A stretch of DNA of 64,000 nt from Haliotis cracherodii (Eukaryota): NCBI RefSeq assembly GCF_022045235.1, contig NW_027266285.1, positions 868,001 to 932,000 of the forward strand, in the 5' to 3' direction. Below are positions 3,396 to 53,814 of the stretch, piece by piece (positions within the stretch are counted from its first letter, which is position 1; the number at the start of each line of letters is the position of its first letter). Under the pieces are notes generated by a model. That model was not told the DNA's origin, did no database searches, and was given only the letters and a program-made list of their open reading frames with translations. The position numbers were made by a program, and so were the translations under genes.

Positions 3396-5900
3396 ACCAC
3401 TATTGCAACTACCACCACCACATCCAATACTGCAACTACCACCACCACCGTCATTACTGCAACTACCACCACCACCACCACCACCACTACCACTACTGCA
3501 ACCACCACCACTAGCACACTGCAACTGCTACCACCACCACCACCACCACCATGACCACTGCTGCAACTACCACCAGCAACACCACAACTGCAACTACCAC
3601 CACTACCACTACTGCAACTACCACCATGACCACTACCACCACCACTACTGCAACTACCACCACTACCACTACTGCAACTACCACCACTACCACTACTGCA
3701 ACAACCACCATGACCACTACTGCTGCAACTACCACCATGGCAACTACTGCAACTACCACGACAACTACTGCAACTACCACCACTACCACTACTGCAACTG
3801 CCACCATGACCACTACTGCAACTACCACCACTACCACTGCTGCAACTACCACCATGACCACTGCTGCAACTACCACCATGACCACTACTGCAACTACCAC
3901 CATGACTACTTCTGCAACTACCACCACTACCACTGCTGCAACTACCACCATGACCACTACTGCAACTACCACCATGACCACTACTGCAACTACCACCATG
4001 ACCACTACTGCAACTACCACCACTACCGCTACTGCAACTACCACCATGACCACTACTGCAACTACCACCACTACCGCTACTGCAACTACCACCATGACCA
4101 CTACTGCAACTACCACCTCAACCACTACTGCAACTACCACCATGACCACTACTGCAACTACCACCATGACTACTTCTGCAACTACCACCACTACCACTGC
4201 TGAAACTACCACCATGACCACTACTGCAACTACCACCGTGACCACTACTGCAACTACCACCACTACCGCTACTGCAACTACCACCATGACCACCATGACA
4301 ACTACCACGACTACCGCTACTGCAACTACCACCATGACCACTACTGCAACTACCACCACTACCGCTACTGCAACTACCACCATGACAACTACTGCAACTA
4401 CCACCATGACCACTACCGCAACTACAACCATGACCACTACTGCAACTACCACCATGACAACTACCACCACTACCGCTACTGCAACTACCACCATGACCAC
4501 TACTGCAACTACCACCTCAACCACTACTGCAACTACCACCATGACCACTACTGCAACTACCACCTCAACCACTACTGCAACTACCACCATGACCAGTACT
4601 GCAACTACCACCATGACCACTACTGCAACTACCAACATGACAACTACCACCACTACCGCTACTGCAACTACCACCATGACAACTACCACCGCTACCGCTA
4701 CTGCAACTACCACCATGACCAATACTGCAACTACCACCTCAACCACTACTGCAACTACCACCATGACAACTACCACGACTACCGCTACTGCAACTACCAC
4801 CATGACCACTACTGCAACTACCACCATGACCACTACTGCAACTACCACCACTACCGCTACTGCAACTACCACCATGACCACCATGACAACTACCACGACT
4901 ACCGCTACTGCATCTACCACCATGACCACTACTGCAACTACCACCACTACCGCTACTGCAACTACCACCATGACCACTACTGCAACTACCACCATGACCA
5001 CTACCGCAACTACAACCATGACCACTACCACAACTACCACCATGACCACTACCGCAACTACAACCATGACCACTACTGCAACTATCACCATGGCCACCAC
5101 TGCAACTACCTCCACTGCAACTACCATCATGACCACTATTGCAACTACCACCATGGCCACATCTTCCCGAGGCAAGAGAGTTAACTGACTATAAAAGTCC
5201 AGTTTCCACCCATACCATGCTAGAATTCCTGGGCTCGATCGTAGCGCCACCAGTGGCTATTACGAGTTGTGTCCCTTCTGTGCCTCTCCTATGGACCAAT
5301 CAGATTCCACCTCTCGTATCACTTGCATTTGCTTCAAACAAAACGGCGGCGCCCAGTCAAGACGATCTGATCGATAATCAAGATCTATATATTGTGATAA
5401 AACGAGTCTTACATCGCGAAGTGCGTCAAATAAAGTGAGCACCTTGATTAAAATCATGAAAAGATTTAGAAAATATCTGTTGACAACGAGTTAGCGGTGC
5501 ACATGTTTTGCAAATCCTGCAATCGACCGAAATCTGCATGACTGACTATACGAACCGGATTTCGATTTCGGAGCACAACTTTGATTGGACTATGCATAGA
5601 CTAGTTAGTCCAGCCAAAATGTAACTCTATAATACCAGCCTAGTTCGGCAAGGGTGGAAACTGGACTTTTATAGTCAGTTAACTCACTTGCCTCGGGAAG
5701 ATGACATGACCACTACTGCAACTGTAACTATAACCCCCTACTGTAACTACCACTACTGCAACTACCACCATGGCGACTACTGTTACTACCACCATGACCA
5801 CTACTGCAACTACCACAATAGCAACAACTGCAACTGCAACTATAACACCTACTGTAACTACTACTATAACCACAACTGCTTGTGTTGCTTGCAATAATAA
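3396..5900. repeat. Cryptic ACY-triplet array (core 24-mer actaccaccatgaccactactgca); reads as poly-Thr (mucin-like) in one frame; split by a MITE
   Basis: ORFs 3551..5188 (Thr), 3271..4203 (His/Tyr/Cys) and 3511..5250 (Val) all come from the same repeat; array resumes after 5704. Confidence 0.9.
5160..5703. mobile_element. MITE-like element with 52-bp terminal inverted repeats
   Basis: 5160-5211 catcttcccgaggcaagagagttaactgactataaaagtccagtttccaccc is the reverse complement of 5652-5703 (1 mismatch); no coding capacity. Confidence 0.85.
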
Positions 5901-6263: not shown

Positions 6264-6428
6264 AAGGAGCTGTCGAGTAGCCTATAGTTGTTAAAGCGTT
6301 CGCTCGTCACGCCGAAGACCAGGGTTCGATTCCCGACATGGGTACAATGTGTGAAGCCCATTTCTGGTGTCCCCCGCCGTGATATTCCTGGAATATTGCT
6401 AAAAGCAGCGTAAACCCTTACTCACTCA
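6264..6428 (+). mobile_element. tRNA-derived SINE (family B), full length
   Basis: A-box-like tagcctatagttg, B-box ggttcgattcc, (actc)n tail, flanking duplication tcaagaaaatt at 6253-6263 and 6426-6436. Confidence 0.88.
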
Positions 6429-6595
6429 AGAAAATTGATAGCTTGCTATGTGACCTGAGTGGAAATGAGACAAGAGGAAATATAAAAACAATATATATTC
6501 AGTGCCAAAAAGTAGGGGATAGTGGGAATCAAGACATATCTTCTGATCTATAAGGTATTGACAAATGGAAATATTATGATCATATCTGCTGGGAA

Positions 6596-6846
6596 GTTTG
6601 TTTGTTGTTTAACGCCGCACTTAACAATATTCCAGCTATATTACGGCGGTCTGTAAATAATTGAGTCTGGACCCCACAATCCAGTGATTGACATCATAAG
6701 CATCGGTCCACGCAATTGGGATACGATGGCATGCATCAACCAAGTCAGCGAGCCTGACCATCCGATCCCGTTAGTCGCCTCATACGACAAGAACAGTCGC
6801 CCTTTGGGTTGCTGAAGACCTATTCTACCCCTGATCTTCACGGGTC
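6596..6846 (-). mobile_element. SINE family A (non-tRNA structured head, (aaac)n tail)
   Basis: Related copies at 8231, 36568, 38052, 40438, 43464; ends in gcggcgttaaacaacaaacaaac. Confidence 0.85.
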
Positions 6847-8200: not shown

Positions 8201-8409
8201 ATGTTAAAGCACATCACTTTATTCTATTCACCTATTCTACCCCGGATCTTCACGGGTCCAATCGCGGATGCATTCATTATACACCCGTGTTTAAACATAA
8301 TAACGGAAACATGTAACTTCATACAGTTATGTTAATGTTATGTTATTAAAGATAACAACATAATATTTGGTCATTCGCGTGAACGATGTTTTATAACAAA
8401 TTCTTACCC

Positions 8410-36567: not shown

Positions 36568-36796
36568 GTTTGTTTGTTTGTTGTTTAACACCTCACTCAG
36601 CAATATTCCAGCTTTACGACGGCGGTCTGTAAAATAATCAAGTCTGGACCAGACAATCCAGTGATTGACATCATGAGCATCAATCCACACAATTGAGATT
36701 GATGACATGCATCAACCAAGTCAGCGAACCTGAACACCCGATCCTGTTAGTCGCCAAGGGTTGCAGAAGACCTATTTTACCCCGGATCTTCACGTC
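36568..36796 (-). mobile_element. SINE family A copy
   Basis: Colinear with 6596-6846; small deletion in the head. Confidence 0.85.
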
Positions 36797-38051: not shown

Positions 38052-38452
38052 ACCTGTGAAGATCTTGGTTAGAATAGGTCGTCAGCAACTCATTCTTGTC
38101 GTAAGATGCGACTAACGGGATTGAGTGGTCAGGCTTGCTGACTTGTTTGATGCATATGTAGCAGGGCGTGGAGTCATCCCACAGATGACATCCTTACCTT
38201 GTCAACTTGCTGACAGGGTTAACCTCTTTGGTCATGTGGACAAGGCGTCCGACCTCTAATCAGAAGGTCTGTGGTTCGAATCCCATCACGGGACTCGGAA
38301 ATTGGATACATGTCATCATATCCAAATTGTGTAGATCGATTCTCATGATGTCAATCACTGGATTGTGTGGCCCAGACACCCATTGTTTACAAACTGCCAT
38401 CATATAGCTGGAATATTGCTGAGTGTGGCGTTAACCAACCAACAAACAAAAA
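38052..38452 (+). mobile_element. SINE family A copy with nested tRNA-like insert
   Basis: Head at 38052-38155, body resumes at ~38300, (aacc/aaac) tail. Confidence 0.8.
38222..38293 (+). pseudogene. tRNA-Arg(TCT)-like pseudogene or SINE head
   Basis: tggtcatgtggacaaggcgtccgacc-tct-aatcagaaggtctgtggttcgaatccc; acceptor stem imperfect. Confidence 0.55.
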
Positions 38453-43463: not shown

Positions 43464-43883
43464 ACCTGTAAAGATTCGGGTTAGAATAGGTCTTCAGCAA
43501 CTCATGCTTGTCGTAAGAGGTGACTAACGGGATTGGGTGGTCAGGCTTGCTGACTTTGTCCAATGGTATGGATCGACTTAATTTCTAACACACTATTATA
43601 ATAATAATGATGATAGAGTATTTCTGACTATGATGAGTTAACAACATACATACACTCACTAGGGGGCACGGGTGGCCCCATCGTCTTAGCTGCCACCATT
43701 TGCTGTGCTGTGCTGTGCATCCCTCATGCATGCCCAACACCTATGATTGTGCATTTGAATCTCAATTGTGTTGATGGATGCTGATGATGTTAATCACGGG
43801 ATTGTCTGGTCCAGACTTGATTATTTACAGACTGCCATCATAAAGCTGGAATATTGCAGGGTTTGGCGTAAAACAACAAACAA
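43464..43883 (+). mobile_element. SINE family A copy split by other sequence, including a family D head at ~43661-43762
   Basis: Head 43464-43560; 3' part 43765-43883; middle matches the 5' part of 63322-63597. Confidence 0.7.
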
Positions 43884-44035
43884 AGTTATGTTAAGCGTGA
43901 ATACTTTTATAACACAGCATTTGACTGATACAGATCCTGGCCAGGGATGTCCAACTTCCAGCTGATCCTGTGTTATCGGTAGTGTACTACAGATAGCCAG
44001 GATATAGCTGCTGTGCTATAGTAACCAAGTTACTA

Positions 44036-50873: not shown

Positions 50874-51480
50874 GTAAGTTGTTCATCATGACTTGAAATG
50901 TCTGTCACTGTTAAATAGTGTCTGAATCTGGTCAAGATATTTTAATAATCACGAGAGTTGTGTTGATGTCGGAGAACTGCAGTGAACAGTGATAGTATGT
51001 TTTATATAAAGCAGTGTGGGACTTCATTTTCAAGAAAATAGAACATAGCCTTATAAACAAACACCTATTTTTTGTCTTCCGATGCGGGCATAAACTTCAG
51101 CCTCTTGATACATGTGCTTCACTTGAAATTTAAGAGTGATAAAAACTGTCACCTTGTACAAGTGGATTGTCTGGTTTAAGTATGCTATAAACATGCTGTA
51201 AATCTATATCCAGAGTATATAAAGTCTCATTGGAAAAAAGCCTCTATAAATTTTGTAGAATTATAGTCCACTGTGCAATAATGATGTATATGTCAGTCAC
51301 CATGAGTGAATGCTTGTTACAGACAACCAAATGAGGATTGGGTGACACATGTCACTGCAGATGATTGCCTTTTGAATGTATGGCCACCTGGGAACCCACA
51401 TGTCAGCATTTGTGTGACATCAGACTTACATTATCGTCATCACTACTTGCAATGTTCTACCTGGTTGCCAGCATGCTCTA

Positions 51481-52940
51481 GACCTGATGTCAGTTGCTTG
51501 GTGTAGCCAAGACCTGATGGCAGTTTCTTAGTGTAGCCAAGTCCTGATGTCAGTTTCTTAGTGTAGCCAAGACCTGATGTCAGTTTCTTAGTGTAGCCAA
51601 GTCCTGATGGCAGTTTCTTAGTGTAGCCAAGACCTGATGTCAGTTTCTTAGTGTAGCCAAGTCCTGATGGCAGTTGCTTGGTATAGCCAAGACCTGATGT
51701 CAGTTTCCTAGTGTAGCCAAGACCTGATGTCAGTTTCTTAGTGTAGCCAAGTCCTGGTGTCAGTTTCTTAGTGTAGCCAAGTCCTGATGTCAGTTTCTTA
51801 GTGTAGCCAAGACCTGATGTCAGTTTCTTAGTGTAGCCAAGTCCTGATGGCAGTTGCTTGGTATAGCCAAGACCTGATGTCAGTTTCCTAGTGTAGCCAA
51901 GACCTGATGTCAGTTTCTTAGTGTAGCCAAGTCCTGGTGTCAGTTTCTTAGTGTAGCCAAGTCCTGATGGCAGTTTCTTAGTGTAGCAAAGTCCTGATGG
52001 CAGTTTCTTAGTGTAGCCAAGTCCTGATGGCAGTTTCTTAGTGTAGCCAAGACCTGATGTCAGTTGCTTGGTGTAGCCAAGACCTGATGGCAGCTTCTTA
52101 GTGTAGGCAAGTCCTGGTGTCAGTTTCTTAGTGTAGCCAAGTCCTGATGGCAGTTTCTTAGTGTAGCCAAGACCTGATGGCAGTTGCTTGGTGTAGCCAA
52201 GACCTGATGGCAGTTTCTTAGTGTAGCCAAGTCCTGATGGCAGTTTCTTAGTGTAGCCAAGACCTGATGGCAGTTTCTTAGTGTAGCCAAGTCCTGGTGT
52301 CAGTTTCTTAGTGTAGCCAAGTCCTGATGGCAGTTTCTTAGTGTAGCAAAGTCCTGATGGCAGTTTCTTAGTGTAGCCAAGTCCTGATGGCAGTTTCTTA
52401 GTGTAGCCAAGACCTGATGTCAGTTGCTTGGTGTAGCCAAGACCTGATGGCAGCTTCTTAGTGTAGGCAAGTCCTGGTGTCAGTTTCTTAGTGTAGCCAA
52501 GTCCTGATGGCAGTTTCTTAGTGTAGCCAAGACCTGATGGCAGTTGCTTGGTGTAGCCAAGACCTGATGGCAGTTTCTTAGTGTAGCCAAGTCCTGATGG
52601 CAGTTTCTTAGTGTAGCCAAGACCTGATGGCAGTTTCTTAGTGTAGCCAAGTCCTGATGGCAGTTTCTTAGTGTAGCCAAGTCCTGATGACAGTTTCTTA
52701 GTGTAGCCAAGACCTGATGGCAGTTGCTTGGTGTAGCCAAGTCCTGATGGCAGTTTCTCAGTGTAGCCAAGACCTGATGGCAGTTTCTTAGTGTAGCCAA
52801 GACCTGATGGCAGCTTCTTAGTGTAGCCAAGTCCTGATGTCAGTTTCTTAGTGTAGCCAAGACCTGATGGCAGCTTCTTAGTGTAGCCAAGACCTGATGG
52901 CAGTTGCTTGATGTAGCCAAGACCTGATGGCAGTTGCTTG
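51481..52940. repeat. 30-bp minisatellite, about 48 copies, with higher-order duplications
   Basis: g(a/t)cctgatg(g/t)cagtttcttagtgtagccaa in exact 30-nt register. Confidence 0.97.
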
Positions 52941-53814
52941 GCCACACCAGACAAGCAACTGTCATCAGTTATGGGCAAGCCCATGTAGCCACCATCAGGT
53001 CTTCGTACTGCCCAGATCTGATGTTAATTGCTGAGTGTGGCACAGACCTGACAGCAGGTGCCTGGTGAGGATGAGATGTGCGGGCGTGTGAGGGAGGGGT
53101 GGGGGGGGGGAGTGAGAGAGAGAATGAAGGAACTGTTTTCTATCATTCTTCTAAAAAACAAAACAACACTGACATACATCCATTAGTGTGTTATTGATGA
53201 TCATAAAACACTTGTGCAATTGAGAAATCCCGATCTAAAATTGATTGCCAGTTGTTTCTGTCACATGAAAAGGATGCATGATATGAAATAAGTAGTACTT
53301 GAATAATTGAGCTTATGACAACACAGTGCATCGTGGATCTTTAACAGGAACAATATGTCTGTCACAAACATCTGAAGCCAGGATGTAGTGTTTAACATTA
53401 AGAAGACACAAGATTCATCAAAGGTGGAATTATTGAACAACCTAAAGTAAGCTTTGATTGTGCTTGTTAGAGGTGCTGGTTATTACTGATATACCACAAT
53501 TTGAAATGCTAAAGAATATGTATCACAGTATGTTTTGAAAATACCGGTATTTTGAGTTTCAAAATCATGAATATTTTCATGTTGTTGCCAAAGTTTACCT
53601 AAATGACAGGTCAAAAATGTGCGGGAGAAGTCTTAAGTGATCAGAAAATTGCAGATTCAAGTATGCAGAAGCTTTTACTCGCAAGTGATATATGCAGGGG
53701 GGAACGACACTTTTTGCTATGCAGGTTCATAAAAAATTACAGATGAAAGAACTGCAGAATAAATTGCAACACGAAAGTCAGGCCAATACCCATCACAAGT
53801 GCTTGAATTGGAGA

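Follow-up and report, generated by a model that had tools for sequence, protein, structure and literature searches.

A pseudoknotted head shared by an abalone LP-type SINE, an I/Nimb-type LINE and viruses may mark where element RNA begins

Results

The window analysed here, a 64,000-nt stretch of the Haliotis cracherodii assembly (contig NW_027266285.1, positions 868,001 to 932,000), carries at 6596..6846 on the minus strand a copy of an LP-type short interspersed element (SINE) that runs from a non-tRNA head to a (CAAA)n tail, and is ~88% identical to the majority of its best relatives in the genome. The family recurs four more times: as a 29-nt head fragment (8230..8258, −) and a second copy whose head has an internal deletion (36573..36795, −), both recovered as profile matches, and as third and fourth copies on the plus strand, interrupted by a ~116-nt insertion carrying a tRNA-like B box (38052..38446) and by a ~195-nt insertion (43464..43884), respectively. 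In this order the five begin at profile positions 1, 1, 4, 2 and 2, within 0–3 nt of the same base, which bears out the shared start described in an earlier note on this DNA; a head 18-mer has three matches in the window against none in 100 shuffles. The copy ending at 6846 is an ordinary decayed insertion, having lost the top pair of its first helix and 11 nt within an internal duplication. That duplication, a 22-nt tandem repeat of a hairpin unit that 29 of the 30 best genomic copies carry completely or partially, had been overlooked in the consensus drawn by eye in the earlier note. At 6280–6440 (+) a tRNA-derived SINE lies tail to tail with the 6596–6846 copy and has the same LINE-type 3′ tail (6608..6650, −, in the LP-type copy). 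Long tandem arrays with open frames of 500+ amino acids occupy 3460–5250 (9-, 15- and 24-nt periods) and 51360–53000 (30-nt period).

The element is ~260 bp long, and its profile, built from the 30 best genomic copies, spans 261 positions. A DNA search of the abalone genome (G000, 1.18 Gb) returned 6,940 first-look SINE candidates, and the profile gave 146 matches, 52 of them with the head, over 40 stretches of 10 kb hand-chosen at round coordinates, which extrapolates to roughly 150,000 heads genome-wide. Copies terminate in (CAAA)n repeats, and target-site duplications (TSDs) scoring ≥8 flank 13 of 29; 6 of these abut the first base of the head (G1) exactly and 10 lie within one base of it. 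Scanned with the generally known A- and B-box patterns, the best genomic copies showed no tRNA head and no conserved Pol III boxes: an exact A box was absent from all 30, and a B-box-like word with one mismatch appeared at scattered positions in 6, unlike the clear B box of the neighbouring tRNA SINE. The earlier note's reading of the element as lacking a recognisable A or B box therefore stands. Elsewhere in the genome, the invariant hairpin unit alone forms minisatellites with ~34-nt and 22-nt periods (L421, G000:C23:27097500-27098800, and L311), and some copies carry the unit three or four times (L321).

Both the SINE family and its LINE-derived head have been in print since 2016. LP (‘LINE promoter’) SINEs are known from Haliotis, Littorina and oysters, and over their first ~70 bp they correspond to the 5′ ends of Nimb-17_LMi, I-3_DR and RTE-9_CPB, making the head common to the 5′ untranslated regions (UTRs) of Nimb/I and RTE LINEs (Matetovici et al. 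2016, PMC4758252). Our element has the Nimb-17-type head homology, the lack of a tRNA head or Pol III boxes, the TSDs and the short 3′ repeats of this class. With the published Hdi_LP, Hmi_LP, Lsa_2 and Sgl_LP it shares a ~70-bp non-tRNA head, the invariant run and TSDs, and the scallop rows of supplementary Fig. S2 show by eye the same invariant run and layout as the abalone head (PMC4758252). The abalone family Hdi_LP, a candidate counterpart, is given as 255 bp against our 261-position profile, and none of the hexamers named for LP-SINEs ahead of their terminal repeats occurs in the 6596–6846 copy (PMC4758252). In the accessible parts of that paper the head is presumed to be a DNA promoter, put forward as a proposal without an assay and with the L1Tc ribozyme as analogy only; no head structure or virus is given there, and the partner LINE was left unidentified (PMC4758252). 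The open-access and bioRxiv literature yielded no description of the head fold, of viral copies or of a LINE combining the head with an HDV-like ribozyme, and no match to the letters of the motif.

Four helices make up the RNA pairing pattern preserved in the head, an H-type pseudoknot followed by an invariant hairpin module, in the order P1a-U-P2a-P1b-loop-P2b-P3a-P4-P3b. Read along the minus strand of the 6846 copy, the first two bases are G and A (6845..6846), the G lying 6 nt 5′ of the loop-1 U and forming the family's 5′ boundary. There follow the P1 5′ strand CCCG (6841..6844), the single U of loop 1 (6840..6840), the 5′ strand of the 7-bp P2 (6833..6839) and the G-rich P1 3′ strand directly after it (6829..6832), whose first C is an A in this copy. 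Loop 3 with its conserved AGAAUA (6821..6826; AGAAU in the general layout) leads to the P2 3′ strand (6814..6820), the P3 5′ strand ACCC (6806..6809) and a remnant of the 22-nt tandem duplication (6793..6805). The invariant module at 6771..6792 comprises the GCNUG strand (its G altered in this copy), hairpin P4 and CUAA, and is followed by the P3 3′ strand CGGG (6767..6770).

Support for this order comes from an alignment, made from sequence only, of 22 of 35 listed heads; decayed or redundant heads were dropped by eye, so that it leans towards well-formed copies. Within it 82.4% of cells are paired (P1 87.5%, P2 87–90%, P3 57.8% with register shifts, P4 100% and invariant), and covariation reaches 0.404 against 0.158 in shuffled alignments, a value attained by 0 of 500 shuffles. 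In a partner-swap test on 15 lineage representatives, 5 (P1), 0 (P2) and 164 (P3) of 20,000 permutations reached the observed score. A further 41 matches gave 77.7% paired cells under an alignment guided by the model and hence biased towards it. The loop-1 U is present in 20 of the 22 homologues, and the GCNUG strand is conserved at 18 (G), 16 (C), 21 (U) and 22 (G) of 22. Hairpin P4 formed part of the search patterns; it is invariant rather than covarying even with its pairs left free. Folding of single sequences, a method blind to pseudoknots, gave weak signals (z −2.3 to +0.1 for seven heads), and no compensatory P2 variant rose to 10–12% in any of five runs.

These tests sort the helices that the earlier note had proposed. 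Its 7-bp stem and GTCG/CGAC hairpin hold, whereas its outer helix and pseudoknot fail with their partners swapped: the 5′ CCCG pairs with the CGGG just past the first stem strand, and ACCC pairs with the 3′ CGGG. The outer helix as proposed, 5′ CCCG with 3′ CGGG, has 37.5% of its cells paired over the 22 homologues, with 17,104 of 20,000 permutations reaching its score; single-sequence folding yields it in 3 of 5 abalone copies, and covariation rejects it. The pseudoknot between loop GGG and ACCC shows no partner specificity (10,395 of 20,000 permutations), and the pairing tests lend no support to a three-way junction containing it. The same note's expectation of a structured RNA outside the HDV, twister and pistol helix orders is supported by the covariation-backed order. 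Its suggestion that CTAA is an HDV-type catalytic strand finds no support, since no HDV P1/P2/P3/L3 can be built. Rfam returned no gathering-score match in the window, none over the head at E ≤ 10 and none in 20 homologue loci at E ≤ 0.5, whereas it does pick up the HDV-like ribozyme of the LINE described below.

The 5′ boundary recurs across families at a fixed distance from the loop-1 U. In the abalone SINE a G stands at −6 in 41 of 61 copies, and conservation falls to 18 of 61 at −7; a first metagenome family has A at −6 in 26 of 41 (falling to 14 at −7) and a second has G at −6 in 20 of 23 (falling to 7 at −7). Two smaller families agree weakly with the −6 boundary and another, with five copies, is ambiguous, and among the scallop rows an A occupies the boundary position in 6 of the 7 copies having all five C's (PMC4758252). 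Because loop 3 varies in length by up to ~15 nt among families while the −6 end stays, the boundary is tied to P1 and not to spacing from the invariant module. In contigs of four other runs G1 is the commonest point of departure from the element (235, 193, 151 and 296 loose ends), which locates a DNA boundary rather than an RNA start; small-RNA reads, 50 in total over three runs, were too few to place RNA ends.

Exact-motif scans recovered at least 122 metagenome loci, mostly SINE-like copies in animal DNA with differing bodies and tails; in two (L145, L152) the head directly precedes a tRNA-like segment, an arrangement shared with scallop MESC SINEs. The whole head also occurs on eight viral contigs, seven of them distinct, and a scan with the P4 pairs freed returned the same eight only. 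Four encode RNA-dependent RNA polymerase (RdRP) domains (L034, L036, L038 and L067), two overlapping contigs encode a tetravirus-type capsid (L032 and L037), one has a 949-aa open reading frame (ORF) without assignment and two tandem heads (L031), and a 212-kb contig has the head beside a DNA ligase gene (L033). On each of the seven small contigs the last long ORF precedes the head, which is found 5–201 nt past the stop codon (5–22 nt in L032/L037, L034 and L036) and 14–119 nt from the contig end. In L033 (2955–3031), a DNA virus contig, it is intergenic, 124 nt upstream of a 959-aa ORF, the sole viral case with a downstream gene. In the retroelement families the head opens with a purine, as do only 2 of the 6 viral heads aligned. 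Two further viral matches (L035, L039) and most loose-pattern matches lack the pseudoknot and were set aside as chance.

Contigs filed as prokaryotic gave 44 exact 17-mer matches. Those with a whole head sit in eukaryote-looking stretches (microsatellites, SINE tails) and the others lack the upstream part; we read these copies as probable host contamination. Nine contigs filed as bacterial or as metagenome-assembled genomes (L240, L256, L257, L258, L230, L233, L234, L243 and L246) carry the head on eukaryote-looking SINE or LINE pieces, probably through contamination by host DNA or chimeric joins.

Searching by pattern for heads joined to a different body led to a second head-bearing family in the abalone genome, an autonomous LINE of the kind that the earlier note had proposed to look for. 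At full length it measures 6.1–6.2 kb, with an ORF1 of ~450 aa and an ORF2 of 1,231–1,235 aa whose endonuclease, reverse transcriptase and RNase H domains follow the I/Nimb-type layout. Over ~45 nt its 3′ end aligns with the SINE tail, which makes it the likely partner of the SINE. Together with the scallop rows of Fig. S2 (PMC4758252), the head on this LINE upholds the view of the SINE as a non-autonomous retroelement headed by a LINE 5′ UTR. The I-clade LINE first found through its RNase H (L295-L312) was rejected as a head carrier on account of its different 5′ end; it is a second young family with an ORF2 of 1,260–1,266 aa, a (GTAA)n tail and, in its 5′ UTR, an inverted piece of LP-type SINE tail between duplicated leader units.

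In 88 of 91 non-redundant 5′ ends of the I/Nimb-type LINE, ~58 extra bases precede the head and build a complete HDV-like fold: a 7-bp P1 with G1·U, P2, P3, P1.1 and the J4/2 C. This fold is paired in 96.1% of cells across eight copies, which are so close that there is almost no covariation, and RF02682 aligns to it over its full length at 27.5 bits (cut-off 44; E 0.099). TSDs abut the HDV G1 at offset 0 in 7 of 11 cases, a 5′-end precision similar to that of the SINE (6 of 13). With an HDV-like fold at its 5′ end and TSDs at its G1, the LINE likely depends on read-through transcription and self-cleavage. The family (L446-L465; for example L450, G000:C78:36476400-36486300) has an exact 5′ end and a compact ribozyme with almost no P4, and in some copies both ORF1 and ORF2 are open.

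Behind the HDV-like ribozyme the head has changed in a restricted way. Only 3 of its 22 module positions, 69, 85 and 86, have departed from the cross-family state (U69G in 66, U85C in 32, U85A in 9 and A86G in 15 of 86), and in two lineages the changes fall on both U's of one pair. Of 69 SINE copies, 68 retain U69 and 61 retain U85; since U85A also occurs in 7 of these 69, position 85 mutates often. Exact counts over the genome give 222 altered LINE heads against 22 with CUAA, GCUUG and CUAA are both intact in only 3 of 88 HDV-bearing copies, and the purine position of the head is a C. P2 compensatory changes nevertheless persist among these copies. The upstream HDV part was retained in 44 of 47 CUAA copies, a set enriched through the choice of queries, including three with fully intact heads; head-only copies showed no significant tie to CUAA (3 of 47 vs 0 of 28, p 0.29).

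Discussion

Viral placement and covariation argue that the function of the head lies in RNA, and the fixed boundary together with replacement by an HDV-like ribozyme argues that it concerns the making or keeping of a 5′ end. The head thus likely marks where the element's RNA begins. Judging from comparative sequence, we consider it most likely, at a probability of roughly 0.42, that it fixes the 5′ end of read-through RNA by blocking a 5′-to-3′ exonuclease of the Xrn1/Xrn2 type at the foot of P1. The SINE, having no Pol III promoter, would be transcribed within host transcripts; decay from upstream would stop at the fold and leave an RNA beginning 6 nt 5′ of the loop-1 U; and the shared 3′ tail would recruit the ORF2 protein of the I/Nimb-type LINE to carry out target-primed insertion. 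Within the 3′ UTRs of viruses this fold could yield stable 3′ fragments, like known exonuclease-resistant RNAs (xrRNAs).

We favour an exonuclease block, for which covariation provides the sign of selection on RNA, because it best accommodates where viruses carry the head, in the 3′ UTR, and the finding that CUAA heads were copied together with the HDV part: 44 of 47 such heads copied with what lies upstream count against an efficient cut or a transcription start at the head's edge. The tie of the boundary to P1 and the reliance of the LINE on read-through speak for it as well. Flaviviral xrRNAs occupy 3′ UTRs just as the viral heads do (PMC11702639; PMC8374639), and for the ST9a xrRNA the Xrn1 stop is reported at the base of P1 (PMC11702639). 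As far as the cited descriptions go, flavivirus class 1–2, class 3 (ST9a) and coremin xrRNAs share with the head a 3′ UTR start, tandem copies and a pseudoknot at the 5′ edge, and coremin also an invariant run of ~20 nt, but the head has no three-way junction or L2B/J1-2/AGY network, differs in sequence and also heads retrotransposons (PMC8374639, PMC11702639, PMC10321173). Assignment to class 1/2 fails on the three-way junction with PK1 and PK2 (PMC8374639), and to class 3 on a J1/2 bulge, L2B loop and AGY motif (PMC11702639) that the 22-head alignment lacks. Against a block, frameshift pseudoknots of the plain H type are reported to have failed to stall Xrn1, whether or not a hairpin came after them (PMC10321173). 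The model also gives no account of a purine first base in retroelement families against 2 of 6 viral heads, and the U·U losses in the HDV-headed LINE look more like the outcome of selection against an active cutter than of drift.

HDV and twister ribozymes free R2, RTE, L1Tc and Perere-3 from read-through RNA, and a new self-cleaving class is the strongest competitor, possible yet less probable than the block. The head would cut just 5′ of P1, with the invariant GCNUG/CUAA loop docking on the pseudoknot as its catalytic module, and so release the element. In its favour are the fixed boundary, where the purine at the first base often stands opposite U, and a 5′-end precision close to that of the HDV-headed LINE. 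In that LINE an HDV-like ribozyme was added directly upstream, the purine position is C, and the one U·U pair was repeatedly lost (U69G, U85C/A), U69 being kept in nearly all SINE copies. The loop moreover resembles the L1 loop of twister-sister and twister-sister-like ribozymes in setting G-C-N-U-G opposite C-U-N-A-A (PMC11620745). It differs from the twister-sister features described there in having no bulged G, an A for the C before the would-be cut and no SL4, with P3 weak or shifted in several members; the would-be cut would fall inside the head, where 0 of 185 matches start. A ribozyme sits poorly with the upstream HDV part kept in nearly all CUAA copies, the three fully intact ones included, with all seven small viral contigs running uncut through the head, with a hairpin that is invariant and not covarying even when its pairs are freed, and with U85A in SINE copies too. 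Ribozymes are, on the other hand, documented in linear RNA viruses, mostly in 5′ UTRs and a few in 3′ UTRs (PMC13725137), which counts against the block.

Known ribozyme classes do not accommodate the head. Like the HDV-like ribozymes of R2, RTE and L1Tc it forms the very 5′ end of non-LTR elements (PMC3774820, PMC6765202). It has no nested double pseudoknot, 7-bp P1 or P3/L3/P1.1, and the C of its CUAA is paired in P4; with the nested P1, P2, P3, P1.1 and P4, L3 and the J4/2 C absent, we rejected it as HDV-like. Twister, pistol and hatchet differ from it in helix order and gave no Rfam match. The broader proposal is a hitherto unrecognised ribozyme class, a pseudoknot scaffold with a docking hairpin, that cuts retrotransposon RNAs loose at a fixed site; SINEs, LINEs and unrelated viruses would have captured it repeatedly, and in one abalone LINE lineage an HDV ribozyme would have taken its place before the key U·U pair was lost. 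This is possible in the same measure. Neither leading model explains why the pseudoknot is retained after the U·U loss, which hints at an additional role.

An internal Pol II promoter starting at G1, the ‘LINE promoter’ of 2016 acting in addition at the RNA level in the manner of the 77-nt L1Tc signature, is considerably less probable. Put forward as a proposal (PMC4758252), it would suit a head at the 5′ end of otherwise promoter-less SINEs and a +1 purine in every multi-copy family, but the same invariant bases occur in RNA viruses, where a DNA promoter has no use, the head has compensatory pairing, spacing from +1 to the invariant module varies and 88 of 91 LINE 5′ ends reach upstream of the head; a DNA promoter as the sole function is unlikely. 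Slightly less probable still is a cap-independent translation or protein-binding element, 5′ in LINEs and resembling a 3′ cap-independent translation enhancer (CITE) in viruses, the SINEs having gained their boundary through template switching: the 17-nt invariant run suggests a fixed partner, pseudoknot compensatory changes persist behind the HDV ribozyme and 5′ HDV-type ribozymes are thought to help translation (PMC6765202), but it leaves the renewal of a precise 5′ end in a non-coding SINE unexplained and no known 3′ CITE family was matched in Rfam.

The 2016 work did not settle how promoter-less LP-SINEs and Nimb/I LINEs come by a precise 5′ end. For the head there is now a fold backed by covariation, a one-nucleotide boundary and, in the HDV-headed LINE, a set of natural loss variants (U69G, U85C/A). 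At stake is a new ribozyme class or an exonuclease block used by cellular retroelements, neither of which we found described for the LP head in the open-access and bioRxiv literature. The s2m element offers a parallel as a small conserved RNA common to the 3′ ends of unrelated RNA viruses and to animal genomes, although in what is described of it sequence and fold are unrelated and Rfam gave no match. The same fold in the tails of unrelated RNA viruses points to a functional RNA module moving between host transposons and viruses.
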